Shown here: positions 7,539-56,749 of the stretch, piece after piece
How the letters are laid out: each line of letters begins with the position of its first letter
Numbering within the stretch: the stretch's first letter is position 1
DNA from: a virus
Reading direction: 5' to 3' (one strand)
DNA: 64,000 nt
Virus record (IMG/VR): IMGVR_UViG_3300022919_000004
Coordinates: 9,315-73,314 of that record
Notes under the pieces: model-generated
What the model saw: only the letters and a program-made list of their open reading frames with translations
What the model was told of the DNA's origin: nothing
Databases searched by the model: none
Program-made: the position numbers and the translations under genes

Positions 7539-8069
7539 TTATGATAATCTACTTTCTTTTACTTGTTTTATAGATAAACCTATTATTTTCATTTCTTCAT
7601 GCGTGAAATTATCCATTCTTGCTACATTACATTCTATGCAACAAGGCACACAGTTTGATCTTATGTGACCCAGGCTGTTGTTTAGTCTATCAAAACCAGT
7701 GGAAGGAAAACCACAGTAAGCGCATGCGTGTTTTCTAACTTCAAGTATGTCGTGTTTTGTTATGTCTGTTTGATGCCCTCTATCCTTATCATACTTCTTA
7801 TAAGCCGAAGCTAAACCTATAGCTCTACCCATAGGAGTAGCCCTATACGCCGCACCAATTTCCGCATGTTTAGCTTTTTGCTCTGTAGTATATGCCGCGT
7901 ACCTTCCAGTCCTTGGGTTTTTATCATACTTCGCCTTTGACCTTATTTTTTCGCAGACCCTGCACCCATACATAAAGCCTCCGGGTCTGCTTTTATCTGA
8001 ATGAAAATTTTCACTTGTTAAATCTTTTACAGTCTTGCATATTGTGCATTTTCTTTCTGTTTTTATCAT
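7539..8069 (-). CDS. HNH/His-Me finger homing-endonuclease-like protein
   Basis: CTIC...CRVC, CAYCG...DRLNNSLGHIRSNCVPCCIECN; absent from the second unit. Confidence 0.7.
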   Translation of the reverse strand: MIKTERKCTICKTVKDLTSENFHSDKSRPGGFMYGCRVCEKIRSKAKYDKNPRTGRYAAYTTEQKAKHAEIGAAYRATPMGRAIGLASAYKKYDKDRGHQTDITKHDILEVRKHACAYCGFPSTGFDRLNNSLGHIRSNCVPCCIECNVARMDNFTHEEMKIIGLSIKQVKESRLS

Positions 8070-8084
8070 CAACAAATATAATAA

Positions 8085-8127: not shown

Positions 8128-8577
8128 TTACGCTAGCTCAATATGCGGTGCATCCGGAAATTTTTTCCAATAAATTCCTGCTTCGATTTTTATACCCAAA
8201 CATTTAGCAGTAGCCATGATGTGAGCGGCAATAATACGAAACTCAGCATCAGCATTCCAATCTATTCTACCATTCACGAACGGAACAAAATCGATTGCGT
8301 GACCATACCCATCTGATTTAACCTGGTGATTACTTTTATTCGTCGTACCGTTCTTTTGGGTCACAATATTACCTAAAGGCTTTTTCGCGCTCCTGCCGTC
8401 CGGGTTTACTTTAGTACGTCCTAAAGCGTATAGTGCTACTTGTTCGGCCTGAGTGCGAACTCCATAAACTATTGTGAAGTCAACCGGAGTTTCCTTAATC
8501 GCTTCCATCATTACCATAACTAACCGAGGATCTACACCCTTTAATTTTGCCAGCGAACCGGCTCCGAAATTTGCCAT
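8128..8577 (-). CDS. endolysin, M15 L-Ala-D-Glu peptidase-like
   Basis: L.GVDPRL, GVRT.AEQ.ALY, SNH...GHAIDF, DAPHIEL. Confidence 0.85.
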   Translation of the reverse strand: MANFGAGSLAKLKGVDPRLVMVMMEAIKETPVDFTIVYGVRTQAEQVALYALGRTKVNPDGRSAKKPLGNIVTQKNGTTNKSNHQVKSDGYGHAIDFVPFVNGRIDWNADAEFRIIAAHIMATAKCLGIKIEAGIYWKKFPDAPHIELA

Positions 8578-8588
8578 AACCAAATATA

Positions 8589-8969
8589 CTAAATTAATTT
8601 ATAACCTCTACGTAGTAAAAAGTAGATCAATCCGGTTAAGGATACCCAAAGGATCGGAGTAACGATAATCAGTTCCGTCGTTCGCTTCAATATCTCCCGG
8701 TTAAACAATAACCCGCTTAACTGCGATATGATAAATACCAGGCAAAACATAGTAGGTACGCTCCAAATCGCCAGGGTATTATTCCATAACCAACGACCCA
8801 ACCACTTGATATACCAGAAATCAAATATAACTGTCCGTATAAGGATTTTAAGCGGCCTATAAGCCATCTTTAGCCTGCAAGTGTAATACATCAGTACACA
8901 CGTTAAAGCTACCATTAGAAGCATTGTAATTGTTGAGGCTATCATTAATGCGATCTGTTCAAAACTCAT
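8589..8969 (-). CDS. multi-TM lysis-cassette membrane protein
   Basis: About 3 TM segments; highly similar copy at 50268-50648. Confidence 0.65.
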   Translation of the reverse strand: MSFEQIALMIASTITMLLMVALTCVLMYYTCRLKMAYRPLKILIRTVIFDFWYIKWLGRWLWNNTLAIWSVPTMFCLVFIISQLSGLLFNREILKRTTELIIVTPILWVSLTGLIYFLLRRGYKLI

Positions 8970-9403
8970 GACTTATCCCCCTCGTTCTTATCATCAGTGT
9001 AATATTTTTTAACCATTGAATTAAAAGAAATCTTACTAATCTTCTCTAGTGATTGTATCAAATACACAGCCATAAAACTACAAATTATCAAATAAACCTG
9101 CAGGCCTACCGAACTAAAAGGGCGTATAGTAGAAAGCCCAGCTTCCCAAAACTTGTAGGCAGTCCATGCCATGAAGATGGTCGCAAACGCGTGTAAGGTC
9201 ACAATACCGCGTCCTAAAATACCTCCACCTGCCGCTATCATGACCATACGCAAGCCGAACCCGCACGTAATGGATACAGCACAGGCAAGTATTTGAGCTA
9301 CATCATGCGTTCCAAAACCTATGAAAAACCCCGTCAAAATCACTCCTTCCCTTATTACAGTCCCTGCCCACATAATTACTGTTTTTATTGCGTGTGTTAC
9401 CAT
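8966..9403 (-). CDS. multi-TM holin-like protein
   Basis: 3-4 TM segments, charged tail KKYYTDDKNE. Confidence 0.6.
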   Translation of the reverse strand: MVTHAIKTVIMWAGTVIREGVILTGFFIGFGTHDVAQILACAVSITCGFGLRMVMIAAGGGILGRGIVTLHAFATIFMAWTAYKFWEAGLSTIRPFSSVGLQVYLIICSFMAVYLIQSLEKISKISFNSMVKKYYTDDKNEGDKS

Positions 9404-9404
9404 A

Positions 9405-9770
9405 TCAGATATTACCGTTTTGATCTGCGCGGAATAGCGCGTATAATGTGTATGCGAATGTTATAGCGTTCAGGTAGTAAATCTGTAGGGATGGACGGGC
9501 GATTAACCCAAATTCATTAACAATAACCAGACCGGATATAATTGATAGAAAAACATAGGCGATATTACGAAACGCAATCTCAGATTTTGACTTTGTGGAA
9601 CTATTACCCATAATGAGTAAAGGGGCTACAAATACAAGCAACTCAGCATTGCGCCAAATAATCTTCCCGCTTTCATCTATGTGCCGATTATTGATACAAT
9701 AGATGTACATGTTATGGCTGCACACGTAGCATGCAGCCATAAGAGCCGTTACGATTGAGCGACTATCCAC
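9405..9770 (-). CDS. 4-TM membrane protein
   Basis: GTG start at 9770 by comparison with 51083-51448. Confidence 0.6.
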   Translation of the reverse strand: MDSRSIVTALMAACYVCSHNMYIYCINNRHIDESGKIIWRNAELLVFVAPLLIMGNSSTKSKSEIAFRNIAYVFLSIISGLVIVNEFGLIARPSLQIYYLNAITFAYTLYALFRADQNGNI

Positions 9771-9921
9771 CGATGTCTTCAATCCATTTCCAATCTGCGC
9801 CAATGCACTTCCATTTGCCTGGCCTTGGACTGCCCGCTGTAAGTGGCTTTGTGCCGCATGCAGCTAAATCGGTTTCTGGGTTTTCTTCTTCGTCTTCTGT
9901 TGGGTCTGTGTAGTTTTCCAT
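9763..9921 (-). CDS. acidic-leader Cys/Trp micropeptide, 52 aa
   Basis: Manual: MENYTDPTEDEEENPETDLAACGTKPLTAGSPRPGKWKCIGADWKWIEDIGG; homologue at 51441-51590. Confidence 0.7.
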   Translation of the reverse strand: MENYTDPTEDEEENPETDLAACGTKPLTAGSPRPGKWKCIGADWKWIEDIGG

Positions 9922-9951
9922 AATGCTTAAAGGTATAAATAATTCCTGAAC

Positions 9952-9967
9952 GCAACAATAGTGTTAC
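9952..9967. promoter_or_regulatory. palindromic box GCAACA-ATAG-TGTTAC between divergent lysis and moron promoters
   Basis: 11/12 match to consensus; perfect at homologous 51622. Confidence 0.7.
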
Positions 9968-10006
9968 AATTACTCACGTCTGGAAATTTGTATTTATGTT
10001 TGGGGT

Positions 10007-10237
10007 ATGGAAATACATAGATACAGAATAAAAGAAATTACCAAATACAATGAAACCAGATTTTACCCACAAGTTTTTATTATGAACTTTTTTGGGTTTA
10101 TTGTTTACTGGAATTTAGTACACCCTAATTATTCATTCGATGTCTATTTCGATACAATTGAAAAAGCTGAGAAATTTATTTTAGACGAAAAAACCGGGTA
10201 CACTGAGCATAAATCTAAGAAATACCACTCGATATGA
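10007..10237 (+). CDS. accessory hypothetical protein
   Basis: ORF track; TATGTTTG-GGGT-ATG; replaced by an unrelated gene in unit 2. Confidence 0.65.
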   Translation: MEIHRYRIKEITKYNETRFYPQVFIMNFFGFIVYWNLVHPNYSFDVYFDTIEKAEKFILDEKTGYTEHKSKKYHSI

Positions 10238-10425
10238 TAACCGTCCACTTCAAAACCCAACACCTAGGCCAATCGGAAATAGATTGCGATTCAATCGAAA
10301 CAGCTGAGCTTATCCCTGCAAGAGGGCGTAAACAATCTGCGGTAAATATTTTATACCTTTATAAGGATGGGAATTTTATCGCTGTAAACATTAACCAGGT
10401 AAAACGTATCACATGGTCGAAGTAA
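10234..10425 (+). CDS. hypothetical protein
   Basis: Homologue at 52059-52250. Confidence 0.7.
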   Translation: MITVHFKTQHLGQSEIDCDSIETAELIPARGRKQSAVNILYLYKDGNFIAVNINQVKRITWSK

Positions 10426-10586
10426 CATTTAAAGCGCAGACTGAGCAGGGGCATTGCGTTGTATTATACCCTGAACGCGTACTAGATCGTAACTTAGAAT
10501 GGTTGCTTGATTTCGGTACGCACACACATTTGTTTGATAAGGAATTGATTAAATCCGTAACCGTATGCCGTATTATTGCACGATAA
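10413..10586 (+). CDS. hypothetical protein, 57 aa
   Basis: Manual: MVEVTFKAQTEQGHCVVLYPERVLDRNLEWLLDFGTHTHLF...; homologue at 52238-52396. Confidence 0.65.
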   Translation: MVEVTFKAQTEQGHCVVLYPERVLDRNLEWLLDFGTHTHLFDKELIKSVTVCRIIAR

Positions 10587-10807
10587 GTTTAAGCGCTGCC
10601 GATCTGGTTAGCTCTTATCCAGTTCTGAAAATATCAGATAAGCCGGAAGATATTTACTTATTCAATTTAGGTATGCATCCACCATTTTCTCCAGGATGGA
10701 TCGTTATTGAACCGGATCAAACATTTTTCCAGGTAATTTCTCTCCTTGCAAGGATTAACGAACTCGGAATAGAATGGCGTATAAATGTAGACCCTGCAAG
10801 ATTATGA
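10565..10807 (+). CDS. hypothetical protein
   Basis: ORF track; unit 1 only. Confidence 0.5.
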   Translation: MPYYCTISLSAADLVSSYPVLKISDKPEDIYLFNLGMHPPFSPGWIVIEPDQTFFQVISLLARINELGIEWRINVDPARL

Positions 10808-10891
10808 AATACCTCATCCTATTTCTTTGCTTTATCTTTTTATTATATTTACTTAAACTCGCTTATGGCGACCATCAAAACCACCTTTAAT

Positions 10892-11023
10892 ATGAACTCT
10901 TTAAACTCCAACAACAAACCGTTATTTACTTTGCCTTTAAGTGCTGGCAAATTAGTACTTTTTATTTTCTGTCTGGCATTGTCCCTACAATTAGCTTTTG
11001 CCGTTAAAGCCTGTATGCCATGA
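10892..11023 (+). CDS. 43-aa TM microprotein
   Basis: MNSLNSNNKPLFTLPLSAGKLVLFIFCLALSLQLAFAVKACMP; homologue at 52767-52898. Confidence 0.65.
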   Translation: MNSLNSNNKPLFTLPLSAGKLVLFIFCLALSLQLAFAVKACMP

Positions 11024-11106
11024 AAGACAAACGAAAATATGCTGTAATAATAATGTGTTTCGGTAGCATACTTATTTGGGCATTTGTATTATGGTGTTTA
11101 TCATAA
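11020..11106 (+). CDS. 28-aa TM microprotein
   Basis: MKDKRKYAVIIMCFGSILIWAFVLWCLS; ATGA coupling. Confidence 0.5.
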   Translation: MKDKRKYAVIIMCFGSILIWAFVLWCLS

Positions 11107-11201
11107 TTTATGCCGTTTGCCTATTCCTGTTTTATAAGACAGGCAAACGTGTACTCAGGTCGCCTAAGTGGCATGAAGAAGATGATAGTGATTTATTATG
11201 A
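11091..11201 (+). CDS. 36-aa TM microprotein
   Basis: MVFIIIYAVCLFLFYKTGKRVLRSPKWHEEDDSDLL; same peptide conserved at the 3' end of 52895-53092. Confidence 0.55.
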   Translation: MVFIIIYAVCLFLFYKTGKRVLRSPKWHEEDDSDLL

Positions 11202-11738
11202 TCATTGCTTTAAAATTAGGAAATCAATAGTCAAATTAAGCGTACCTAATAACGGTACTGTACTGAAATTTACTGTAAATCCTGAAGCCGTTATATTACT
11301 TATCCAGCTAGGGACAGCGGCCTGCGGAGTTCTTGCTTGTACATAGACCTGAGTTGGAATAAAAGGTAAAACTGTTGTAACCCCATTAATAACATAGTTC
11401 ACATTATAAGCAGTTTGAAGTGTCACGCTACTAAATGTAACACTGCCTTTAATGGTGTTGCCATTAGCCACCCTGACCCACCTACCGGTAGCCATATTGG
11501 TCACTTTGATGGTTATAAACCCGTCATCATTAGCAGTGCTGGTATCATCCCAACGATAAACACCTCCATTACCATCTGTTGGGTTAGCCAGACCTAATAG
11601 TAAAATTTGCACTTTTGCCGTTCCACCCTGCAAGCGCATATCCGCTACAGTACCAAATGAAACAGGAGAAACAGCTACCGATTGAGCGATAGCAAAATGT
11701 ACTAAAAATAGTAACGGGAAGATTAATAACTTTTTCAT
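11202..11738 (-). CDS. signal-peptide protein with tailspike N-terminal adaptor-like domain
   Basis: MKKLLIFPLLFLVHFAIA|Q; GLANPTDGNGGVYRWDDTSTANDDGF...TGRWVR. Confidence 0.7.
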   Translation of the reverse strand: MKKLLIFPLLFLVHFAIAQSVAVSPVSFGTVADMRLQGGTAKVQILLLGLANPTDGNGGVYRWDDTSTANDDGFITIKVTNMATGRWVRVANGNTIKGSVTFSSVTLQTAYNVNYVINGVTTVLPFIPTQVYVQARTPQAAVPSWISNITASGFTVNFSTVPLLGTLNLTIDFLILKQ

Positions 11739-11740
11739 GA

Positions 11741-12814
11741 TTAGAACATAATAGGTTTAATTAACGCGGTGTATAATAACTCTTGTGATCCTGATGGAGG
11801 GGCTACGCTATAATATATGTAAATATTAGTCGCGTCTATTGTGGCATACTTAAAATTTGCAGCCTTATCAGAGTTGGCAGTAAGTAATATTAGACCACCA
11901 CCACTGAAGCCTGGTGCTCCATGTGGTATGGTTATAGTAGTGCTACTCCCGTTTCCTGTTGCTACCAAATAAACTACATAACCCGTTTCTGTATGTATTG
12001 TAGATAAAACCTTTCCGTCTACATACCTTTTGCTTGTTACCGATTCAGTTCCATAACTCGCGCTAACATCAGCATTATAATTAAGCACTCCTGTAGTAGC
12101 ATTAAGTGTTAATCTATTGAACGGCGCCAATGACCCTGCTGGACCATACGCAACCCAAAAGTTCATATTACCAGAGGCATCACCAAGTAAAGCCCATGAT
12201 TTAGTAGCGGTAGCTGCATCATTAGTATTATTCCACATATAGCCACCAGCAGCAAAATTATTAGTGGCTCCACCCCCAGCATATACGTTTGATCCAACGG
12301 TTATTGATTGAAAAAACCTGTTGTATCCATTCCATCCATTATCAGTATTAAAAATGTTGGCATAACTATTTATATACCCATTAGGATTTGATGAAAGGTA
12401 GTACGAACTATTATCATACGTGATCGTCGTTCCTGATGCCTTAATAAAGCCTGTGCCGTTCAACTGTGCTTGTTTCCCTGCTACTGTTGAGTTTGCAGCA
12501 ATCACCGTGTTAAGGTCTTGCCAGGTCTTATCCCCCCTCCAATACTGTGCAGTAGTTCCTGCTGTTATTTTAGGTTCATACGTTGCCGCCGCAAATCCCT
12601 TGCTTGCAAAAGCCTGCCAGATCGTACCATCATAAATCTGTAAATCCGCAGCAGTAGAATTAAGGTAAATCCTACCCAGAAACGGGTCTGTTGGCGCTGT
12701 GCTTAAAACCTGTATCCCGATACCGGCAGTCATTCTGAACGGTGAACTATGCGTCTGCTGTGCTTTTACCGCAAATGACGCAAGTAAAAGTAATATTGAT
12801 ATGTATTTTTTCAT
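11741..12814 (-). CDS. signal-peptide tail-fibre-like protein
   Basis: MKKYISILLLLASFAVKA|Q; GRIYLNS...YDGTIW, AGTTAQYWRGDKTW, TITIPHG C-terminal domain. Confidence 0.65.
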   Translation of the reverse strand: MKKYISILLLLASFAVKAQQTHSSPFRMTAGIGIQVLSTAPTDPFLGRIYLNSTAADLQIYDGTIWQAFASKGFAAATYEPKITAGTTAQYWRGDKTWQDLNTVIAANSTVAGKQAQLNGTGFIKASGTTITYDNSSYYLSSNPNGYINSYANIFNTDNGWNGYNRFFQSITVGSNVYAGGGATNNFAAGGYMWNNTNDAATATKSWALLGDASGNMNFWVAYGPAGSLAPFNRLTLNATTGVLNYNADVSASYGTESVTSKRYVDGKVLSTIHTETGYVVYLVATGNGSSTTITIPHGAPGFSGGGLILLTANSDKAANFKYATIDATNIYIYYSVAPPSGSQELLYTALIKPIMF

Positions 12815-12823
12815 GATTGCGTT

Positions 12824-15550
12824 TTATTGGTGATTTTCTATAAATGCTAAAATAGCCACTTCATCATAACAAGCGTCTGCGATATGTCCTGCTCCAACCT
12901 TAGTTATAAGAGTTGTTGAGTAGTTGCCCTTTGCTCTTAGGTTAGTTAAATAATTTATTGACTGGGCGATAGGTATATCTGTATCTGCGTCACCGTGTAT
13001 AGACAATAAAGGAACTGTTGACATTAGCCCAAGATTTCTATACGGCACATATTCATATATGTCAGTTATAGCCCCTGAGAAGTTGACAAAAACTACGTTT
13101 CCTGCGACATAAGACTTAGAAGCGGAATAAGTATCATAAAATGGATTTAGATATTCTGAATTTACCGGGGCTATAGTTCCTCCTCCAATTTTAACCCAGT
13201 TAATGCCATCGTCTACAGGGGTTACCCCTGTTTGGCTAACTAAAGACCTATAGGCAGTCCCAAAAGCTTTTTTTATAATATTCCCATAAGTTCCACCTGC
13301 AAAATTAGTTTCCGTATCAAATGCAGGACTTATGCCAATAACACCCTTTAATTTATCAGGGTAATTAGTCGCGAACATTACAGAGTTTAGCCCACCCATG
13401 CTAGCCCCTAATTGAAATATGCTTTTTGGATTGAGTACTGATACTGCATTATCTTGTAGGCTTTTTCTATACTTTAATCCTGTTGGCGCCCCCCAATTTG
13501 AAGAAGTTACTCCTGCTCCAAATAAGTTTGTACCTGCTGGATTATTGTAAGAGTTAAATGTTCCGTAGCATATTGATTTGCCGTTATTAAATAAAGCCGA
13601 TACAAGTCTGTTTAACCCGGTTGTTCCCGGTATTGCCCCGGCTGTAGCATTAGGATGATGATACTGTACAAGTACTTCCGATCCTTTTGGAGATATTACC
13701 ATAGACGGATAAGTCCCATCTAAACCATCATTAAGAATATTTGGTTCGTATATCGTTACTAAACCCCATTTAGGCGGGGACATAGTATTAGAAGCATAAA
13801 CGCTCTGCACTTCATATTTACCAACACTAGCGGCTGTAATTTTTATATCATTTAAATTGGTAAAAGGCGAAAAGCCCCCGCTAAGAAATGTTATCGGGTT
13901 TACCCTGTACCCTATTCTTCCATCATTATTAGGTAAGAAAACTCCCGCAGAAAACTGAGCATTCCAAGGTTTAGATATACTTTTAATGATCGCGGAAACT
14001 TTTGTTCCTGTCGATATAATGCTAAATTGATATGAATCCCCCGATACAAAAGGTGTAGAGGTATTCCCTAAGTAATAAGAAGCCCCACTATATGCCGTTA
14101 TAGCCTTGTTAGTGTTATCAAACACAAAAGAATTATTAACCCTAGCATCAGAACTCCCTTTTTGTCCAAAAGAAACCTGAAAGTTATCAGCAGTAACTGT
14201 TGCATCAGTTATTTTAACAACCATATCAATCCTAAAAGGCTTTGATGTGTCTATAAAACTTACATCTATTTCAGCAGAGGCATTTACAACATTTGGAGTT
14301 ATGCCATTAGCCGTCGCCACAAACCCAGTATTAGATGTTAATGAGTTTATAGTTATTTTTTCTTGATTTACTTCATACCTCTTAGTATACCCCATTAAAT
14401 CGGCACTTGTGGCAACACTCCCCGGCACATAAGCAGTATTCCCACTACCTGCATAAGTAACCTTAATAACCTCCCCTGAGACCATGTTTTCAGGGAATGT
14501 AATTCTACCAGTTGCAGGATCGAACGTTACATTCTTTAATGGATCACTTGTCGTGGTGTTGATCGAATAAAACGTTCCTTTGAATACCTGAGTAGGCAAC
14601 ATTGCTATTAACCTGGAATCCACAACAAAATTTTGCCCCGCTACACCGTTAATATCAATCGTATATGAAACAGCTTTATTTATGTTCTGTTGTAGCGTTG
14701 TTTCAGCCGCTGTAGCGCGACTTGTTTCTGTAGTCAGTGCAGATGCTTCAGCCAGCCCTGTTACCGCTCCTGTACGACCATTTACCGATGTTACCGGATA
14801 GTTAGGAACGTTTGCCGCTATCGCAGTCTGTACAGCTAAAGACGTTGGATAGGTAGTATTATTTGCCCCTGTTAAGGTTGTGACTTTATTAGACGAGTTT
14901 TCCTTGCCGCTAATATCCTGATCCCCTGTATTTGTTCCACTGAGATTAGTAGCAGATATAGCACCTGTAAATAATTGACCTGACACATTAGCCTTTAGAT
15001 CAATATCTGCTTTCCTCGCAACATCATTTGCTAAACTAGGTGTTTTCTGAACCTGCAAGTTTGGAGCAAAAGAAAAGGGGCTGTTTGTGCCATCTCCTAA
15101 ATGCAAATAATTAATACTTAAATCAGGATTAAAGAAGTTATGCGCAGTAGCAAGATAGTCAATCTTACCCGACCCCCAAGATAAAGATGATCCCTGAGCA
15201 GTAGGAGAGGTAATACCAAATTGAGTAACATTAGTATACGAAGAACCTGAGCCAAACCTACCTTGTAATGCCTGAAAGTTTCCATCTATCCATGCCGTTG
15301 CAGATTGCGCAGATGCACTTTGATTTTGGATATACCCGGTCCCGAATATAGGCGCATACCTAGCGTCTGATTGCGTTTTGTTGTAAAATGTATTGAATAA
15401 TGATTGATAGTAAGCCTTAGACTTCCAAACTTGCTGAACCCCCGCAACTGTTGCGCGCAAAGATGTATCTGCTGCAGCTACCCCGACCTGAGCATTTGCC
15501 CCGATACCGAAAAGCATTAAGGCAATTAGTAATTTAAATTTCATTCTCAT
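12824..15550 (-). CDS. signal-peptide tail fibre/spike with C-terminal alpha/beta-hydrolase
   Basis: MRMKFKLLIALMLFGIGANA|Q; VTSVNGRTGAV and LSGTNTGDQD fibre motifs; GASMGG, HGDADTDIP, GAGH catalytic triad motifs. Confidence 0.7.
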   Translation of the reverse strand: MRMKFKLLIALMLFGIGANAQVGVAAADTSLRATVAGVQQVWKSKAYYQSLFNTFYNKTQSDARYAPIFGTGYIQNQSASAQSATAWIDGNFQALQGRFGSGSSYTNVTQFGITSPTAQGSSLSWGSGKIDYLATAHNFFNPDLSINYLHLGDGTNSPFSFAPNLQVQKTPSLANDVARKADIDLKANVSGQLFTGAISATNLSGTNTGDQDISGKENSSNKVTTLTGANNTTYPTSLAVQTAIAANVPNYPVTSVNGRTGAVTGLAEASALTTETSRATAAETTLQQNINKAVSYTIDINGVAGQNFVVDSRLIAMLPTQVFKGTFYSINTTTSDPLKNVTFDPATGRITFPENMVSGEVIKVTYAGSGNTAYVPGSVATSADLMGYTKRYEVNQEKITINSLTSNTGFVATANGITPNVVNASAEIDVSFIDTSKPFRIDMVVKITDATVTADNFQVSFGQKGSSDARVNNSFVFDNTNKAITAYSGASYYLGNTSTPFVSGDSYQFSIISTGTKVSAIIKSISKPWNAQFSAGVFLPNNDGRIGYRVNPITFLSGGFSPFTNLNDIKITAASVGKYEVQSVYASNTMSPPKWGLVTIYEPNILNDGLDGTYPSMVISPKGSEVLVQYHHPNATAGAIPGTTGLNRLVSALFNNGKSICYGTFNSYNNPAGTNLFGAGVTSSNWGAPTGLKYRKSLQDNAVSVLNPKSIFQLGASMGGLNSVMFATNYPDKLKGVIGISPAFDTETNFAGGTYGNIIKKAFGTAYRSLVSQTGVTPVDDGINWVKIGGGTIAPVNSEYLNPFYDTYSASKSYVAGNVVFVNFSGAITDIYEYVPYRNLGLMSTVPLLSIHGDADTDIPIAQSINYLTNLRAKGNYSTTLITKVGAGHIADACYDEVAILAFIENHQ

Positions 15551-15555
15551 AATTT

Positions 15556-16422
15556 TTATAGTGTTGCTTCCCATGCGTATTTTAATGATTGACCGTCGTT
15601 ATTACTGAACGGTAAGGTTATGTAAATATTAGTTTCGTCCCAATCCTTAAAGGTCACCCCTATCATGCCGGATGCTAAATTGTTCGGGAAAGCATCTGCG
15701 TGCTTAGGTTTGCTTGTGTAACCGTGAGGTATAGTTATCAGTAGTTGACCCGTATCATTGATAGCGTAAAATCCTGCCCTATTTTCATTAGCTGTAGGCG
15801 GCATAGAATTACTGTCTGCTATGTATGGCAGTTCGCCACTCGATTGTGATGGTACATAAACGTAGGCGACCTGTACAGCATCTGCAGGAGTAACAGGCTC
15901 ATTAGGTATCGAAGTAGCCACCCCATCCAACAATAATATATTTCCAGCAGTATTCGCATATATTAAATCTATACGATTAAAATTTAAATCTGCAGGCGTT
16001 AAATCAAGCTGCGTTTGTGTTGCTTTAGAATACAGGTCACCGTCAATAGCCCATTTACCGGCGCTTACTGAAACGACCTGGCCGAATACTGATGCCTGTA
16101 ATGAAATATTACCAGTACCGAAATCAAAGCCTAAAGGTATTGATAACTCCTGAACCCAAGCCGAATTCCGGTAACGCCAAATAGCAAAATTAGAACTTAT
16201 TTGTACATACAGGGCTAAATCGGTTGCCGTTCCCGTTGGCGGCACTGCACCACCCGATATAGGGAAATCGTTTATAATTCCTAGTATCGGCTTTAGCAAA
16301 TCGGCTAATTGTAACCCGATAGAAGCTACGTCTGTAGGATCGATTGAATTTACATCGTCTTTAACGGCAACATTCGTGTTTACCTGTTGCTTGTATGCGT
16401 CTAAAAGATCTTTATAGTTCAT
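15556..16422 (-). CDS. tail-tip/fibre adaptor protein
   Basis: Position; NRIDLIYA...G...P.EP..PA; homologue at 56755-57624. Confidence 0.6.
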   Translation of the reverse strand: MNYKDLLDAYKQQVNTNVAVKDDVNSIDPTDVASIGLQLADLLKPILGIINDFPISGGAVPPTGTATDLALYVQISSNFAIWRYRNSAWVQELSIPLGFDFGTGNISLQASVFGQVVSVSAGKWAIDGDLYSKATQTQLDLTPADLNFNRIDLIYANTAGNILLLDGVATSIPNEPVTPADAVQVAYVYVPSQSSGELPYIADSNSMPPTANENRAGFYAINDTGQLLITIPHGYTSKPKHADAFPNNLASGMIGVTFKDWDETNIYITLPFSNNDGQSLKYAWEATL

Positions 16423-18300
16423 CTATGTAAATTCTTGCGTAAACTCTTCGGTAAATATACCATATTTCGGATTTAAATCAACTGTAGGATCTTGTATAAT
16501 TTCGCTTTGCTCACTTCCTGGATATTCAGGGGTAGTCAGATCAACAGATTTGCCAGCCCTATCGAACAGTTCAGTTAGTTTTCCATTTGAAAACGTGTTG
16601 TATTTAAGGTCAATATCGCCGCCCATAATCCCGAACACTTTTTTATTAAACGTCAATGATTGCCCCGGTACTTCAAAGCTGAATGTATTTAAATAGCTAA
16701 AACCTGACACGCCAGTACGTAACTTCAAGTCACCTAACCAGAACCTGAATGCCTTTTGGTAAGCCCTTAGAATTGATTTGGCCAATGCCAAGCTGAAAGG
16801 CGCAGGCGCTGCAGTTGTGCCGTACTCATACCAACCAGAAGTATAAACACCTTTGTACCTTATCGCATACAGTGAATTTAAAGGTGTATCTGCTGCAGTC
16901 CTTTGCGCATAATCACCGAATGGTATTTCTATACGATCAGGCTTTTCGGTATAAAAACCTAAGTTGGTGGAACTACTCAGTGTTCCGGTTACATCTGAAT
17001 CCGCTACCGCACTTGTTTTCGATACAGATATATCATCCATTATAATCGGGATATACCCTGTCAGTTCAGTAATGATCAACTCCGGCCTATTCAAAGCATT
17101 ACCTCCGCTCGATACAGCCTTATCATAATTCACTTTAGTAAACCCGTATATCTGCAAACTCATTAATCCCGATACCGGACATTCAGGAGCGGAAAAGTTA
17201 AACGAAAAGGTATTGGCATCTCCTTTACTGTTCTCGATCAGATTTGATACCGTACTAAGCGATGTTACCCATTCGTATGAAGTTCCGTAATCTACGTTGC
17301 GTAAATAGTAGTTACCGACCTTAATGCGTATTTTACACACATACATGGTTCCTACTGTTTGCGTTACCGTATAGCCTCCTGAATAACCACCGTCATCTAC
17401 AGTAGTAGTAACACCAGTATCCGTTTTGCCTACCCTGTATTTAACTGAAATCTTATCGCCTATCTGTATTGGTATCGGTGCCGATTGATAGTATTTACCC
17501 GCATTTGCGCGCTCATTGAATTGGATGGCGTAATTATCTAAAGGCACAAGTTCGCCTTTTGCATTGGTTACGGTACGCGGCACACGTGAAAAGTTTAAAC
17601 CGCCAAATCGCGTCCAGAAATTAAAGTTTTGACCGTCGAACAATTCAAAGTCTCCGTTATATAACAGGCTCGGTACGTTACCGAATTTAGTTAATACCTC
17701 TACCCGTTTATACGCATCTTGTATCGGCATTTCAGCGCCTGACAAAGCAATTATTTCTTTAACTCTAGGTTCCGGTTCAGGTGGCGTAGGCTCGAACGGT
17801 TCTACCTCGAAATTACCAGAAGCAAATAACCCGACCAATGATTTCGAGCGAACAAATGCTGTGTATACTTGCGGACTTAGCGCGCCGAATAGGTTGCTAT
17901 CTTGCCATTTTACTGCATCGGGGCTGTACTCATATGGAGCAGGTCCACCCGAAGTGTTAATTGTTGCCGTTCCGTTATTTAATCCCGTTCCTGTTTCATC
18001 TGTAACCGTAATCGAATTGATACGTATATCGTTAAATCCAGGATCTACAGCAACCGCCACTTTAGTAAATGTAGCGAATGGATATAAGTCAGCCCATTTG
18101 AGCGTATAGGTAAACCCAGCGGCCCATTTACGGATTAATGTATCACCTGGTGCAAAGTTTGGGTAATGCGCATCAAAGCTAACAGGAGGTGTGCCGCCAT
18201 TAGTAAGCAGTGCCGATACAGTACCCGCCAATTCATCATAAGCGATGGTTACGCCCTGATTTAATCCTGATTTATTGCCGACAAAGTTATAGTATATCAT
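16423..18300 (-). CDS. minor tail protein with SprB-like repeat
   Basis: ITVTDETG...NGTATINTSGGPAPYEYS...WQDSNLFGAL; homologue at 57625-59499. Confidence 0.6.
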   Translation of the reverse strand: MIYYNFVGNKSGLNQGVTIAYDELAGTVSALLTNGGTPPVSFDAHYPNFAPGDTLIRKWAAGFTYTLKWADLYPFATFTKVAVAVDPGFNDIRINSITVTDETGTGLNNGTATINTSGGPAPYEYSPDAVKWQDSNLFGALSPQVYTAFVRSKSLVGLFASGNFEVEPFEPTPPEPEPRVKEIIALSGAEMPIQDAYKRVEVLTKFGNVPSLLYNGDFELFDGQNFNFWTRFGGLNFSRVPRTVTNAKGELVPLDNYAIQFNERANAGKYYQSAPIPIQIGDKISVKYRVGKTDTGVTTTVDDGGYSGGYTVTQTVGTMYVCKIRIKVGNYYLRNVDYGTSYEWVTSLSTVSNLIENSKGDANTFSFNFSAPECPVSGLMSLQIYGFTKVNYDKAVSSGGNALNRPELIITELTGYIPIIMDDISVSKTSAVADSDVTGTLSSSTNLGFYTEKPDRIEIPFGDYAQRTAADTPLNSLYAIRYKGVYTSGWYEYGTTAAPAPFSLALAKSILRAYQKAFRFWLGDLKLRTGVSGFSYLNTFSFEVPGQSLTFNKKVFGIMGGDIDLKYNTFSNGKLTELFDRAGKSVDLTTPEYPGSEQSEIIQDPTVDLNPKYGIFTEEFTQEFT

Positions 18301-19442
18301 AGCACCGAACCTATTACGCGGTTAACGTCTAATATCTCCGCATTCAAAAATAAGCCTTTATAGTTGTAATTCCTTGCTCTTATCGCAGAACCCGATAATT
18401 CATTTGCACGTATAATATTCCAAACCCCATCAGCTTGTACGATGTAAGCACCCCAGCTAGTTAACACAGCCTCTAATGCTTCATAGCATGTCATCACTCC
18501 GCCTTTATCGTTAGTTAATGACAGCGGGTTAACACGCGCCATTTGAAGCGGATCGTTATCCAGTCCCGTAGGCATACCCGGGCTATACAGGTTGCATATC
18601 GTTCTTATCGGTAAATTTAAATTGGTCAGCGATAAACAATAGGCGATAATGTCAACGAAAGATTGGTATACCTCAATATCTGATCCTACTGGCAATGGAT
18701 ATGAACTTGATTTAAGCCCGCCTAATGCATCAGTAGCTGAAATAGATACAGGATAAGGAACCGACATAAAAGGTTCGGTACAGGTACTAGGAATGATATA
18801 TCCCCGGAAAACAATAGCCCCGGATCTACGAGCGGTAACCCTGAAAGCGCGTTCGTCGTTTGTGTAGAACTCCTGCAATAAAAAGTCCTCATCGCAAATG
18901 AAAGACATTTTAAGTTCTGCAGGACGGAACGGATCGAACTTGTCGTCGACCTCTTTATATGATATGATAGCCGGAGATTTGCCGCCAGTATTCAGGTAGC
19001 TAGGTGTCCCGTTATAATTTTTACTTTCTATATCCAATTCGCATTGTACGCCCTCGATATCACACCAACCATAAGCACGATAAACACCGTAAACAGGATT
19101 ACCAAAAGGACTAAACGGTACAGATGGTTCGGGTAGTGGTGTTTGGTATCCGCATTTAGTTGCGTTAATATCCGTTTCTACCCTAGCAAATGGTCGCTCA
19201 TCTGTTGCGTAAACCCTGTAATTGGTGTATGTTGATAAGTTGCAAAACTCGGTTATCTTGTCGCCGGGATTATACCGTCTGTTATTTGACTTGTAATCAG
19301 ATACCCGGTCTAAGTTCATTATTGGCTCACCTGGAGCTTCCGGGTTTGATAAGTTTCCGTTAGCGTCAATATCAACTATAGCGGTACGCCATTTAGCCAA
19401 GAAACCAGATGGCTTAACTTGAAATCGGTCTATTTGGCTCAT
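18297..19442 (-). CDS. distal tail/baseplate-region protein
   Basis: Immediately after tape measure; homologue at 59486-60652. Confidence 0.6.
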   Translation of the reverse strand: MSQIDRFQVKPSGFLAKWRTAIVDIDANGNLSNPEAPGEPIMNLDRVSDYKSNNRRYNPGDKITEFCNLSTYTNYRVYATDERPFARVETDINATKCGYQTPLPEPSVPFSPFGNPVYGVYRAYGWCDIEGVQCELDIESKNYNGTPSYLNTGGKSPAIISYKEVDDKFDPFRPAELKMSFICDEDFLLQEFYTNDERAFRVTARRSGAIVFRGYIIPSTCTEPFMSVPYPVSISATDALGGLKSSSYPLPVGSDIEVYQSFVDIIAYCLSLTNLNLPIRTICNLYSPGMPTGLDNDPLQMARVNPLSLTNDKGGVMTCYEALEAVLTSWGAYIVQADGVWNIIRANELSGSAIRARNYNYKGLFLNAEILDVNRVIGSVL

Positions 19443-52058: not shown

Positions 52059-52250
52059 ATGATCACCGTCCACTTCAACACCGAACACCTCGGACAAACG
52101 CAAATAGATTGCGATTCAATAGAGGTCATAGAACTGATACCTGCAAGGGGTAGGAAACAGCAAGCTGTAAATGTGCTATATCTTCACTACGGACACGATG
52201 TGTTAGAGGTAAATATTAAACAAGTAAAACGTATTACATGGTCGCAGTAA
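52059..52250 (+). CDS. hypothetical protein
   Basis: Homologue of 10234-10425. Confidence 0.7.
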   Translation: MITVHFNTEHLGQTQIDCDSIEVIELIPARGRKQQAVNVLYLHYGHDVLEVNIKQVKRITWSQ

Positions 52251-52396
52251 CATTCATAGCGCAAACAGAACAAGGGCAGTGCATAGTACTTTATCCTGAG
52301 AGAGTACTAGATCGTAACTTAGAATGGTTGCTCGATTTCGGTACGCACACACATTTGTTTGATAAGGAATTGATTAAGGAGGTTAAGGTAGTATGA
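52238..52396 (+). CDS. hypothetical protein, 52 aa
   Basis: Homologue of 10413-10586. Confidence 0.65.
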   Translation: MVAVTFIAQTEQGQCIVLYPERVLDRNLEWLLDFGTHTHLFDKELIKEVKVV

Positions 52397-52898: not shown

Positions 52899-53092
52899 AA
52901 GACAAAAAAAGTAAACGCCCTTCTATGGATCGTATTTGCCGTAGTCGTTTTCTGGATACTATGGATAAACTTTGCAGCATGGTGCCTGTCATAGTTTATG
53001 CCGTTTGCCTATTCCTTTTTTACAAGTCAGGCAAACGGGTGTGTCGGTATACTAAGTGGCAGAATGAGGATGATTCCGACCTTATTGCTTGA
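52895..53092 (+). CDS. apparent frameshift fusion of two TM microprotein genes
   Basis: A7 run after GAC shifts the frame; alternate frame KVNALLWIVF...AAWCLS matches the 11020 peptide, 3' part matches the 11091 peptide. Confidence 0.45.
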   Translation: MKDKKSKRPSMDRICRSRFLDTMDKLCSMVPVIVYAVCLFLFYKSGKRVCRYTKWQNEDDSDLIA

Positions 53093-53618
53093 TTACTAAA
53101 TAATCATTTACAATGTTCAATGTACCCACTATCGGCACTGTAGTGTAATTAACTGTAAAACCAGAGCTCGTAATATTTGTTATCCAACTAGGCTGCGCTG
53201 CGGCCTGTGTACGCGGCTGCAAATATATCTGAGCGGGAACAAAAGGTAAAACAGTAGTTACCCCGTTAATAACATAATTAACAGTATAAGATGTTGTAAG
53301 GAGCGCCCCACTAAATGTAGTAGATCCTTTAATACTATTGCTGTTTCCTAATCTTAACCATCTTCCGGTACTTACCCCGTTTACTGATATTACCAAAAAT
53401 CCGTCATCTGTAGCGGTACTGGCTGCATCCCACATATACCGGCCGCCGTTGGTGTCGTAAGGAGTAAGCAAGCCGGATATTTCAACTTGCGCCCGGTCCT
53501 GAGCTGCTGTAGTTTTTAGATCTGCTCGTATACTGTAGGTTACGGGTGCCGTTCCTTGTATTTGTGCATTGGAGATTAGCGCCAAAAATAATAGAGGTAA
53601 AAGGAATAAACGTTTCAT
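53082..53618 (-). CDS. signal-peptide protein with tailspike N-terminal adaptor-like domain
   Basis: MKRLFLLPLLFLALISNA|Q; YDTNGGRYMWDAASTATDDGF...TGRWLR. Confidence 0.7.
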   Translation of the reverse strand: MKRLFLLPLLFLALISNAQIQGTAPVTYSIRADLKTTAAQDRAQVEISGLLTPYDTNGGRYMWDAASTATDDGFLVISVNGVSTGRWLRLGNSNSIKGSTTFSGALLTTSYTVNYVINGVTTVLPFVPAQIYLQPRTQAAAQPSWITNITSSGFTVNYTTVPIVGTLNIVNDYLVIKQ

Positions 53619-53620
53619 GA

Positions 53621-56600
53621 CTATTTTAATTGAATTGAATAAACGAGGTTATTTGTTCCGGTAACGGGGGCGACGGTGTAAATGATATTTATATTTGTTG
53701 CATCTGTAGTCACGTATTGGAATCCAGCTGCAGCGGCGGTATTAGCGGTTACCAGGCATATACTTGTTGACGTAATACCAGTTACCCCATGAGGTATTGA
53801 AATCGTTGTCGATGTTCCGTTACCCGATGCTGTTTTACGGATTATTTGGCCTGTTTGAGTTAATATCTGGTCGTATATATCTGACGTTATTGCAATGACC
53901 CCTATTTTACCGGCTGGTATTGAAACGGATCCCCCACCAGATACACCTTTTATGCTACCGCCAGTTCCAAAATTTATTAACTTAATAGGATCTGAACCCT
54001 CTAACACTGCTACAGTTCCAGATACATCAGGTAGAGTTACAGTTTTATTGGACCCCGTTACGGGTGCGAAGTTAAGGTATTGCTTAAAAGATGACCCCGT
54101 AGCCTGGTATTCTAAACCGGCACGTTTCACCGCAGAATATCCACCCGACCCATCGCCAAATACAGATATGCCGTTACCCATAATGGAAGTACTACTACCA
54201 CCCGCAGTTGCAACATACCCGTTTGCGCCTGTGCTTTGGAAATCGGAAGCTACTACACTACCATTTATTTTTATCTGACCTGTTTGGGTAGTGGCATTTT
54301 GATTTTGAATATAATTTACAGAACCGGAAATCCTTTGAAGTACTCCTGTAGTCGGATTAGATGTGACTAAGCTATCTGTTGACAGACCGTTGGGTTTAGA
54401 GGGTACAAAAACATTGCCGCTAGCCGTTACTGTGCCCATAACGTTAATACTTGTCAAAGGACCTAAACTAATTCTCCCATTTGCTCTGTTTACTACCAGC
54501 CAATCACCCAAAGAGTTACCTGCATCATCATACCTAGTACCGGAAAAATCTGATCCTGCGTTAGCCCCGCTTTCTGGCGTTGAAGTAACCCCAAGAGTGA
54601 ATCTTCTGGCTGCATTTGTTTGGAAAAGTATCTGCCTAGTTGTAGATGCCGAATTTCTAAGTACAAGAGTTCCATTATTACTACTCAGTGTAGATGCCGA
54701 AGTAATGCTTGCCCCTCCTGTAAAATTACCCCCTACACCTCCTGTACCACTTACATTGAAATTCGCTGTTTGCAGACTGGTTTGATTTAACACAGCTCCA
54801 GTAGTACCCCCCGTACCACCCATTGCTGTAGGCAATGAGTTTATAGATTCGATAAGTCCTAAATTAGTAGTAGCCGAAGTATTTATTACTGGTATTTTAT
54901 ATAAACCATCAGTATTCGATGGCACACTATAAAGATATGTAGTTGGAAATATTTGGTAATTTTCAGATAAATTTCCATTACTAACAATGCTATGTGTTGA
55001 CGCACCAATATAAGCATAGCTACCTGCGTCCGTTCCTTTACCTGCTGTTGGAGTAAAATAACTACTATAAGGCTTTCCAATTAGAGATACATTAATATTT
55101 AAACTTTGTGAAAAACCAGATTTAAGATTTATTATCCTAAAGTAAAACCTGCTATCCCCAAAAGATGGTGTAACTAGTTTTACTTGCAACATTATAGATT
55201 GTTGGTAGTAAACCTCCCATCCTGCGCTAAGCCCGGTTAATAGTAATGGCCGTACATTAACCCAAGTGTTCGCTGGATACCAAGAATTTATGGGTACTTT
55301 GTAAGTACGTGCTGTTGGATTATAGCCAAATCCTGAAAAAATAGGGACTTTACTAAGTGTATCTGTGCCGTTCAATGTTATGTCGATAAAATCGGATATA
55401 TTTTTACTGTATGACAAATACCCAATTTCGATATACTCGTTTATTGTTGCTGATGTAGTTCTATTTACTGAATAGTGACTAGGATTATTTTTTATATAAG
55501 ACGCACTCAATACCCCTGTTATGTCTGCATCTCCATAAATCTCTAATGAATTAAAGGCTGAATATTCTGCGCTAGCTATAATTTTATTACCCAAAACGTT
55601 AGGATGAACACCATCAGCTTGCAAGAGTTTAACACCTCCATTTTTAGTTGTTATATCTAATAAATCAATATATTTTAAAGAATAGTTTAACGCTGTTTCT
55701 TTAGTTGCTTGTACATATGCCTGGTGTCTAGCAAGACTAGAAACATAAGGTGTTGAATATGAGTAATTAGAAATAAATGGAGGTGAGGTTAATATTATTT
55801 TAGACGAGGCCCATCCCTTTGATAAAGCGTTATTTATAATTGTTACGTACGCCGATTTAAAACCAGAGACGGTATAAGAACCACTATTTATTAAAATATC
55901 ATTTGTGCCTAATGATATAATTAAAAAATTATTACCTTTTATATAATTAGGAATTAATGCTAATTGTGTAAGTATAGAGCCCCCATAAGATGTAGGACTC
56001 CCATTTTGCATAGACATACCTGTAACTGATTTATTAATCTCAACAGCATTCAATCTATTGGCTAAAACGGTAGTGTGGCGGGTTAGAGTATCCTGCAATC
56101 CATACCCTTTATCTATAGAATCTCCTATAAAAATTAGTGTATCCACTTTATCTACGGTTTGGCCTATAGAAACAGAATTACTAGTTGTATTACCCAAATC
56201 GGTCACACTTTGAAGTGTTGGGGTTGGTATAGCGGCTATTTTACTATTAACCTGTTGTAGAGTTGTCAAATCTGCATTACTTGTTGCATCTGTGCCACTA
56301 ATCCTACCATCTGGATAGAAGGTATTTACCGTAGAGCCGCCTACCGTGCGGATTATTCCGGCTCCCGAATTTTGTTCGATTAAATTATTTAGTCCCGATG
56401 AAGCTAAATTAAGTCGCGTAATTATGGTGTTACCATAAAAACCAGATCCGTTAAAGAGCCCATACCCTAAAACGTTACCAGAAGAATTACCTATTAGTAT
56501 GTTAGTACTTGCTGTATTTCCCCGTATCAATACCGATTGTAGATCATTAGCCCCAAACAGCCCGTCTATCTGTACCTTATTATAATAAAGACCAAAAGCC

Positions 56601-56749
56601 GTTTTATAATATTCAAAGTTTTTCCATATTCTTACCTGCCCATTTACTGTAGCGCGTAACGACGTATCAGCTGCAGCCACCCCGACCTGAGCTTTAACCC
56701 CAACACCTAAGAGTATTAAAGCGAATAGTAATGTAATTTTTATTTTCAT
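53621..56749 (-). CDS. signal-peptide tail fibre/spike with SGNH/GDSL hydrolase domain
   Basis: MKIKITLLFALILLGVGVKA|Q; FIGDSI, LGTND, DGVHPN; C-terminal TISIPHG domain as in 11741-12814. Confidence 0.75.
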   Translation of the reverse strand: MKIKITLLFALILLGVGVKAQVGVAAADTSLRATVNGQVRIWKNFEYYKTAFGLYYNKVQIDGLFGANDLQSVLIRGNTASTNILIGNSSGNVLGYGLFNGSGFYGNTIITRLNLASSGLNNLIEQNSGAGIIRTVGGSTVNTFYPDGRISGTDATSNADLTTLQQVNSKIAAIPTPTLQSVTDLGNTTSNSVSIGQTVDKVDTLIFIGDSIDKGYGLQDTLTRHTTVLANRLNAVEINKSVTGMSMQNGSPTSYGGSILTQLALIPNYIKGNNFLIISLGTNDILINSGSYTVSGFKSAYVTIINNALSKGWASSKIILTSPPFISNYSYSTPYVSSLARHQAYVQATKETALNYSLKYIDLLDITTKNGGVKLLQADGVHPNVLGNKIIASAEYSAFNSLEIYGDADITGVLSASYIKNNPSHYSVNRTTSATINEYIEIGYLSYSKNISDFIDITLNGTDTLSKVPIFSGFGYNPTARTYKVPINSWYPANTWVNVRPLLLTGLSAGWEVYYQQSIMLQVKLVTPSFGDSRFYFRIINLKSGFSQSLNINVSLIGKPYSSYFTPTAGKGTDAGSYAYIGASTHSIVSNGNLSENYQIFPTTYLYSVPSNTDGLYKIPVINTSATTNLGLIESINSLPTAMGGTGGTTGAVLNQTSLQTANFNVSGTGGVGGNFTGGASITSASTLSSNNGTLVLRNSASTTRQILFQTNAARRFTLGVTSTPESGANAGSDFSGTRYDDAGNSLGDWLVVNRANGRISLGPLTSINVMGTVTASGNVFVPSKPNGLSTDSLVTSNPTTGVLQRISGSVNYIQNQNATTQTGQIKINGSVVASDFQSTGANGYVATAGGSSTSIMGNGISVFGDGSGGYSAVKRAGLEYQATGSSFKQYLNFAPVTGSNKTVTLPDVSGTVAVLEGSDPIKLINFGTGGSIKGVSGGGSVSIPAGKIGVIAITSDIYDQILTQTGQIIRKTASGNGTSTTISIPHGVTGITSTSICLVTANTAAAAGFQYVTTDATNINIIYTVAPVTGTNNLVYSIQLK

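Follow-up and report, generated by a model that had tools for sequence, protein, structure and literature searches.

In textbook tailed phages, all parts of the virion are built in the cytoplasm. Why should the genes at the tail-fibre position of a phage operon carry the hallmarks of secreted proteins? The question is raised by a 64,000-nucleotide stretch (the window, positions 1-64000) that covers positions 9315-73314 of the 77,222-bp IMG/VR virus record IMGVR_UViG_3300022919_000004. Three consecutive minus-strand open reading frames (ORFs) in this window, gpA (12824..15550; 908 residues, a distal fibre protein), gpB (11741..12814; 357 residues, a fibre protein) and gpC (11202..11738; 178 residues, a mini-fibre assigned to family PF27114, Phage_tail_beta), close a tail operon that reads p731, p381, p625, p288, gpA, gpB, gpC, with gaps of 5, 9 and 2 nucleotides before gpA, gpB and gpC, respectively. 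Preceded by the tape-measure, Dit-like and Tal-like genes, they occupy the distal end of the tail module, which is where an earlier note, made from the letters of this DNA, had placed three consecutive tail-fibre genes. Our preferred reading, held with middling confidence, is that gpA, gpB and gpC are distal, exchangeable host-recognition proteins of a siphovirus-like Bacteroidota phage, made as Sec preproteins. That such distal fibre proteins are exported, processed and only then join cytoplasm-built tails, at lysis, is a proposal for which belief and doubt weigh about the same.

Signal peptides on the distal tail proteins

The N-termini of the three proteins consist of a basic n-region and an uncharged hydrophobic core, followed by ANA/Q, VKA/Q and AIA/Q (the slash marks the predicted cleavage site), so that the putative signal peptides span residues 1-20 of gpA (15491..15550, minus strand) and residues 1-18 of both gpB and gpC. 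For gpA, the same signal is kept with either of the alternative ATG codons at 15574 and 15544. The window comprises two related, collinear phage units, offset by 41.2-42.3 kb and sharing blocks of 64-94% nucleotide identity, and the second unit encodes two counterparts on the same strand, a 1042-residue fibre (53621..56749; VKA/Q) and a 178-residue gpC homologue (53082..53618; SNA/Q), which is 54% identical to gpC. Small residues at positions -3 and -1 and Gln at +1 are found at all five sites. We scored signals in all 149 window ORFs of at least 60 residues with a simple script of our own, based on charge, core hydropathy, the -3/-1 rule and Gln at +1. Of the six highest scores, five belong to these proteins, with 4.47 for the unit-2 gpC homologue and 5.0-5.5 for the other four, and the sixth, 4.46, to an 81-residue membrane protein; the remaining ORFs scored at most 3.7, and no other tail protein scored at all. 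The scores agree with the claim of the earlier note that all three genes encode Sec signals of the signal peptidase I type with A-x-A/Q-type sites.

Conservation points to the same boundary. The layout of MKK, a hydrophobic stretch and a small residue directly before Gln is kept in 30 of 30 aligned gpC homologues, whose leader sequences differ, and Gln at +1 is at least 90% conserved across them; the Q-rule invoked in the earlier note thus holds. Gln at +1 is described in two studies as a Bacteroidota-specific signature of signal peptidase I substrates, the exposed Gln being turned into pyroglutamate by a cyclase associated with the inner membrane (PMC5837995, PMC10653852). The sole species-representative genome with a gpC homologue is a Bacteroidota metagenome-assembled genome. 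In the five proteins that share the N-terminal anchor of gpA (see below), leaders diverge widely and the sequence from +1 on, QVGV..ADTSLRATV, is nearly invariant, so that the conservation boundary coincides with the predicted cleavage site.

The signals also follow the architecture of the tail. A single backbone, made up of p381, p625, p288 and shared lysis genes, carries the distal proteins in four partitions: 908, 357 and 178 residues in unit 1, 1042 and 178 in unit 2, 1306, 346 and 194 in locus L025, and 320, 395, 503 and 178 in locus L027. Across these four partitions, 12 of 12 distal polypeptides have their own signal with Gln at +1, as opposed to none of the backbone tail proteins, and a basic n-region with an uncharged core of about 8-15 residues is present in all 12, the five window proteins among them. 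Given that signals occur on every outer fibre protein and on no inner one, the fibres probably mature outside the cytoplasm. The same layout recurs in distant loci (L003, L004, L006-L011, L013, L015, L016, L018 and L019), where one to three fibre genes with signals precede a gpC homologue, which has a signal too, and the lysis genes come next.

Leaderless relatives of gpC exist as well. The homologues in L012, L014 and L017 start exactly at the predicted +1 and are 49-58% identical over the rest of the protein, and a 149-residue cluster representative in the AlphaFold database has the same signal-less form. The L017 homologue (9977-10438; 153 residues) belongs to a different phage, where the fibre-type and other small ORFs around it all lack signals, which fits with gpC-type proteins being ordinary virion parts elsewhere. 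A separate case is the gene after the gpC homologue in L007 and L009 (10513-10560), which, compared with L008 (10513-10590), has a 30-nucleotide in-frame deletion that removes the hydrophobic core and the cleavage site; found in two contigs from different samples, it represents a natural signal-less allele. Downstream starts as a source of signal-less isoforms were rejected: unit 1 and unit 2 have no in-frame start-like codon in common near the cleavage site, which makes a conserved isoform of this kind unlikely.

Could the leaders serve something other than export? The proteins would then be cytoplasmic or tethered to the inner membrane, tails would assemble in the usual way, and the leader would be kept or cut by another protease. 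To our knowledge, the morphogenesis of all known tailed phages is cytoplasmic, in line with this alternative, and the signal-less homologues together with the natural deletion indicate that the leader is dispensable for folding. We nevertheless regard it as improbable. The leaders have every feature of a signal peptidase I substrate, including the host-specific Gln at +1, which there would be no reason to conserve without cleavage and cyclisation; their sequences drift freely while their physico-chemistry is kept, and the positive-inside n-region would put the body of the protein outside the membrane. The signals and the Q-rule are read from the sequence, and we infer export and cleavage from them; judged by these signatures, export is well supported, and processing and pyroglutamate formation are predicted.

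Modules of the putatively exported proteins and a predicted docking site

Behind its leader, which forms a helix in the AlphaFold2 model (predicted local distance difference test, pLDDT, 82.5), gpC folds into two beta domains: a tailspike neck domain at about residues 26-89 and a lectin-like knob at about residues 95-176. PF27114 is precomputed for gpC and all 35 homologues, the protein matches PHROG 38440 ('tail spike protein'), and tblastn connects it to tailspike and tail-fibre genes; at the sequence level, the N-terminal domain aligns with residues 137-198 of a 720-residue tail-fibre protein of a Pseudomonas siphophage. In a Foldseek search against the PDB, this domain falls on the neck of Fri1 gp49 (6c72; E = 5.8e-4; root-mean-square deviation, rmsd, 1.4 Å over 70 columns), and further superpositions were obtained with the K2-2 tailspike, CBA120 TSP2 and the bacterial protein WceF. 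The C-terminal domain resembles H-type lectins and the fibre tip of AP22 gp53 (Foldseek against PDB, BFVD and AFDB); H-type lectins are six-stranded sandwiches like the Helix pomatia agglutinin, with a sugar site at the trimer interface, and for those retrieved (2ce6, 2cgy and 4q56) the Foldseek probability is 0.98-0.99 and the template modelling score by target about 0.45. With a neck and a knob and no beta-helix, gpC amounts to a tailspike minus its helix. The earlier note had recognised in gpC, in which DGNGGVYRWDD lies at residue 55, a segment resembling N-terminal adaptor domains of tailspikes. The tailspike likeness stands, by PHROG 38440, tblastn and Foldseek, and the structural comparison that the note had suggested matches the neck to solved tailspikes and the knob to lectins and a fibre tip; the adaptor label does not stand, because the segment corresponds to the neck that precedes the beta-helix and not to the particle-binding head domain.

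gpA is a mosaic of signal, N-terminal anchor, fibre repeats, beta-sandwich and alpha/beta-hydrolase esterase. The anchor (15356..15490, minus strand; mature residues 21-65), which is accompanied by a signal in five of five relatives, is the only part conserved with the unit-2 fibre: the two proteins are 55% identical over the first 65 residues, with no identity detected beyond. Conservation confined to this end of the protein is the pattern expected of a virion anchor, as far as sequence can tell. The fibre-repeat region (14381..15043, minus strand; about residues 170-390) has dozens of short, high-identity matches in diverse proteins and includes, at residue 253, the fibre motif VTSVNGRTGAV picked out by the earlier note. 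The C-terminal module (12827..14389, minus strand; residues 388-908) combines a beta-sandwich with a serine esterase, and its 520 residues were modelled with a pLDDT of 88 and a predicted template modelling score of 0.91. Foldseek retrieves S9-type hydrolases and carbohydrate esterases (E about 1e-12), and Pfam assigns PF00326 (E = 3e-10), PF12146 and PF00561. The predicted catalytic triad consists of Ser717 in a GASMG elbow, Asp856 and His889; in 26 sequences, Asp and His are invariant and Ser is at least 90% conserved. With a GxSxG elbow, Asp and His so placed on the modelled fold, gpA is a candidate serine esterase of the alpha/beta-hydrolase class. The esterase module is also found behind ordinary, signal-less fibre N-termini, in P0092-P0099.

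The corresponding position of the unit-2 fibre is occupied by an esterase of unrelated fold, SGNH/GDSL (about 55550-56150), as opposed to the alpha/beta-hydrolase of gpA. The unit-2 fibre further ends in a gpB-like domain, 49% identical to the C-terminal 81 residues of gpB. Combining the gpA anchor with the gpB C-terminus, it constitutes one exported chain where unit 1 has two. Nucleotide homology between the units ends at 11490 and restarts at 15447, positions that bound the swapped cassette.

gpB itself has motifs of minor tail proteins, among them AGTTAQYWRGDKTW, which the earlier note had quoted and which we located at residue 85. It is matched in tblastn by mycobacteriophage minor tail proteins and a Janthinobacterium phage protein, and its short motifs are common to actinophage minor tail proteins; its nearest full-length homologues, P0037-P0039, are signal-bearing too. 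The C-terminal domains of gpC, gpB and p288 look alike by eye (ITIPHG, a TNIY-type strand and an ...IK ending), and a single family for all three was considered and not confirmed: with hhalign, the gpC profile could be aligned to gpB and p288 over the signal alone or not at all, and BLAST of the p288 knob against gpB returned only a hexapeptide. The one established C-terminal link is that of gpB with the unit-2 fibre. Taken together, the fibre or tailspike nature of the gpA, gpB and gpC bodies is supported.

What might such proteins attach to? Directly upstream of gpA lies p288 (15556..16422, minus strand), a 288-residue tail protein without a signal, 77% identical between the units, whose C-terminal knob covers about residues 215-288 (window 15559-15780). 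A model of three copies of p288 with three copies of gpA residues 21-65 scored 0.83, and the best of three controls 0.00. In the calibration of the tool, which applies only roughly to a multi-copy job, the mark was reached by 51 of 78 solved complexes and by 2 of 108 mismatched pairs. Three model runs agree in at least 97% of contacts, with a partner pLDDT of at least 88, and a search of the PDB found no sequence relative of p288 or gpA, so that recall of a solved complex is unlikely. The interface brings gpA residues 21-27, 32-35 and 39 together with p288 residues 227, 252-257 and 270-276, and would thus include the very N-terminus that cleavage would create. This speaks against the view that the leaders are not used for export, in that an uncleaved leader would extend the chain at residues 21-27. 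The mature gpA N-terminus is, by this model, predicted to dock on the C-terminal knob of p288.

The distribution of the two partners agrees with such a pairing. Knob and QVGV anchor are both present in five loci (unit 1, unit 2, L025, L027 and L029) and both absent in L019 and L030, where the N-terminal domain of p288 continues into a different C-terminus; since these loci are related, they do not count as independent cases. L029 (7001-11013) mixes routes, with a p288 homologue of 316 residues (knob plus a 30-residue extension) followed by a signal-less 539-residue fibre and then by a 473-residue protein with signal and QVGV anchor. Domain folds, the modular pattern and the predicted interface come from sequence and models; from these we infer when and where attachment would occur and what the substrate would be.

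Destination and a possible assembly route

Once across the inner membrane, the proteins could in principle travel further. The host phylum uses the type IX secretion system (T9SS) and surface lipoproteins widely, and gpC homologues end in ...IKQ, which may, by eye, resemble how certain T9SS C-terminal domains end. Whether as surface lipoproteins or as T9SS cargo, the proteins would be secreted to the surface or into vesicles and serve as displayed adhesins or decoys. We consider this far-fetched and rejected such targeting: no T9SS C-terminal sorting domain (TIGR04183, TIGR04131 or PF18962) was matched at E up to 1 for NCBIfam and up to 0.01 for Pfam, behind the hydrophobic core, none of the five window proteins has a cysteine at its cleavage site or close to it, as the lipobox of lipoproteins such as the exclusion proteins Llp and Cor would require, and the C-terminal domain of gpC folds like an H-type lectin or a fibre tip. 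The surface display suggested by the earlier note accordingly finds no support. With neither a sorting domain nor a lipobox, the default destination is the periplasm.

As for what export would achieve, two reasons were rejected. Host O-glycosylation is one: gpA, gpB and gpC contain 0 sequons of the form D-(S/T)-(A/I/L/V/M/T), the motif of general Bacteroidota O-glycoproteins that is enriched among exported proteins, compared with about 5 expected from shuffles; the unit-2 fibre has 5 compared with 3.5 expected. Disulfide formation is the other, given that gpA has two cysteines and gpB and gpC none. Possible benefits are extracytoplasmic stability via pyroglutamate (as described in PMC10653852), keeping esterase and lectin activity away from the cytoplasm, receptor stripping, and arming of the particle at lysis.

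The closest parallel is the Cellulophaga phage phi10:1 (NC_021802.1), an isolated Bacteroidota siphovirus in which p731 and p381 have homologues, gp087 (E = 8e-22) and gp088 (E = 3e-15), respectively. Between its baseplate and lysis genes lie five consecutive genes, gp091-gp095, whose products all have a Sec-type signal with Gln at +1 and include pectate-lyase-type and 'tail fiber' proteins. The phi10:1 record annotates gp091-gp094 as virion proteins by tandem mass spectrometry (MS/MS); it makes no mention of their signals, nor did we find any in the literature. The two phages differ in that neither a p288-type knob nor a QVGV anchor was seen in phi10:1, and the distal proteins are analogous and not homologous. 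By this analogy, presence of gpA, gpB and gpC in virions is favoured, with the qualification that detection in phi10:1 particles would fit cytoplasmic assembly behind unused leaders equally well.

A different use of genuine-looking signals would be action on the host envelope, the exported proteins not being virion parts at all. They would bind and deacetylate envelope glycans in the periplasm and so destroy or mask receptors, with the consequence that progeny is not lost on debris or that superinfection is blocked; alternatively, they would help to weaken the envelope during lysis. Under this reading, the particle would recognise its host through p288 and p625. Esterases of unrelated fold in both units are what one expects of receptor-destroying enzymes, signal-less p288 ends in a knob of its own, the genes adjoin the lysis cassette, and an envelope-modifying role has been proposed for Q-rule genes of Porphyromonas gingivalis phages (PMC10367356). 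We still hold this to be unlikely as the whole explanation. The genes are packed into a late tail operon and not set apart like lysogeny genes, the conserved anchor of gpA has a tail protein as its predicted docking partner, no enzyme domain is present in gpC or gpB, the same modules are signal-less fibre parts in other phages, the phi10:1 record lists proteins of this slot as virion components, and a soluble enzyme freed at lysis needs no export. The earlier note had proposed export followed by either of two fates, joining the virion or acting on the envelope. Export is well supported by sequence signatures; of the fates, joining the virion is favoured by the docking model, the co-occurrence of knob and anchor, and phi10:1, and envelope action could coexist with it.

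How, under the preferred reading of virion proteins that mature outside the cytoplasm, would the two halves of the particle meet? The lysis cassette (8128..9803, minus strand) comprises three multi-pass membrane proteins and a signal-less Peptidase_M15_4 endolysin (Pfam PF13539). An endolysin without a signal means that the phage must open the inner membrane with a holin, and the makeup of the cassette implies holin-type permeabilisation of this membrane before release, with the membrane proteins as presumed holins. Late in infection, tail tube, baseplate and the 288-residue adaptor would be built in the cytoplasm, and the distal proteins would pass through the host Sec machinery, be cut by signal peptidase I so that Gln is exposed, probably have this Gln turned into pyroglutamate by the host glutaminyl cyclase, and fold in the periplasm. 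As holin-type lesions form, the compartments would mix, and particles and fibres would share one still-enclosed volume, in which the new gpA N-terminus could dock on the p288 knob and arm the particle. Mounted on the particle, the lectin-like knobs and the esterase (an alpha/beta-hydrolase in unit 1, SGNH in unit 2) would bind a glycan on the surface of the next host and deacetylate it; the esterase may have a second role in the periplasm of the dying cell, that of removing receptors. A more elaborate version, which we put forward as doubtful, is an assembly checkpoint: cleavage by signal peptidase I, perhaps with cyclisation of Gln21, would make the only N-terminus that fits the p288 knob, arming would be possible only after the holin lesions, periplasmic esterases would strip receptors, and the two-compartment route would be widespread among Bacteroidota phages.

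Several points weigh against this route. We found no precedent in the literature for exported parts that attach to cytoplasm-built tailed virions, and no description, in the literature searched, of tailed phages whose tail fibres have Sec signals. The folds do not depend on export, as signal-less gpC homologues and the 30-nucleotide signal deletion in L007 and L009 illustrate, and the nearest isolated tail-core relatives, Flavobacterium phage 11b and Cellulophaga phage phi18:1, carry signal-less fibres. The phi10:1 distal proteins have no detectable homology to gpA, gpB and gpC, and the MS/MS statement comes from the annotation of a GenBank record. The docking score expresses model confidence on a job unlike those of the calibration, in which 7 of 44 blind neighbouring genes passed. 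The signal scores are those of a home-made scorer, and for this phage export, cleavage and virion presence are argued from sequence, models and analogy.

Should a large group of Bacteroidota phages send its receptor-binding proteins through host Sec, virion assembly would take place in two compartments and require SecYEG, signal peptidase I and possibly glutaminyl cyclase, which would be new host factors and points of resistance. Pipelines that discard signal-bearing proteins as non-structural would miss receptor-binding proteins, a matter of consequence for host prediction in gut, soil and marine viromes. The pair of p288 knob and new N-terminus would provide a concrete docking rule for swapping fibres.

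The remaining genes of the unit-1 tail operon are encoded, like gpA, on the minus strand. p731 (19439-21634) is tape-measure-like and p381 (18297-19442) Dit-like, both with PHROG and phage matches, and p625 (16423-18300) is Tal-like with a weak SprB repeat: residues 97-126 give a sub-threshold match (E = 2e-4; 21.3 bits, the cut-off being 28), and the same weak match occurs in L025. The match may point to a gliding member of the Bacteroidota as host, or to mimicry of a gliding adhesin. A scan of 9700-16600 for sigma-70 promoters and terminators gave counts at shuffle level, which is uninformative for Bacteroidota promoters; in the same scan, no strong terminator splits gpA, gpB and gpC. The tail operon is separated from the lysis cassette by three small ORFs on the plus strand (10007-10807; 76, 63 and 80 residues), which run against the direction of all surrounding genes and have no family match; a second copy lies at about 52059-52377, and the 63-residue ORF is about 80% conserved between units. 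Just after the endolysin, 7539-8075 encodes a cysteine-rich 178-residue protein with paired CxxC, by eye of zinc-ribbon or HNH-type appearance, with no Pfam match at E up to 0.01. The record as a whole consists of two related but distinct phage genomes, head to tail, and many relatives are single contigs of about 40-44 kb. Either two prophages in tandem or a chimeric assembly from two strains that occurred together could explain this, and the CheckV value of '100% complete' may be misleading. Among isolated phages, neither a nucleotide search for close relatives nor a protein search for gpA gave a match.

Comparison with known systems

T4 gp34-gp37 and lactococcal BppU-BppL combine a conserved proximal adaptor with swapped distal bodies, trimeric beta-rich tips and enzyme modules that vary with serotype. 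The present set resembles them in its conserved proximal adaptor, conserved distal N-termini, swapped bodies and variable enzyme modules. Secretion signals set it apart: those systems have none, and all their parts are produced and assembled within the cytoplasm.

Export of similar folds is known from cellular proteins. Pantoea stewartii WceF (6tgf; PMC7949094) is a trimer of tailspike fold with an export signal that acts on glycans outside the cytoplasm, and its neck superposes on the N-terminal domain of gpC with an rmsd of about 1.7 Å over 67 columns. Unlike gpC, it is encoded in a chromosomal exopolysaccharide cluster, uses a Tat signal for export in the folded state and has a beta-helix. 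The MAT fibres of Bdellovibrio bacteriovorus (PMC10769870), compared here by description, are trimers like phage tail fibres in which a signal is followed by a conserved beta-rich N-terminal domain and variable distal parts. Fibres of this type are thus capable of export and of folding beyond the cytoplasm (PMC10769870); the MAT fibres differ in being cellular proteins of a predator, placed on its own surface or on a vesicle and not on a virion.

Use of host Sec by phages has likewise been described. The Q-rule genes of P. gingivalis phages (PMC10367356) encode signal peptidase I signals that expose Gln and have been read as exploiting host Sec. Their function is unknown, they are discussed as outer-membrane modifiers and not as tail fibres, and they are not linked there to a docking partner. 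Among late phage proteins in general, signal-peptide and signal-anchor-release (SAR) endolysins and spanins are sent through host Sec before lysis. These are lysis effectors that stay in the envelope, unlike structural or receptor-binding proteins. Set beside all these systems, what is new here is the natural experiment afforded by two units, a gpC family that occurs with and without its leader, and a specific docking hypothesis.

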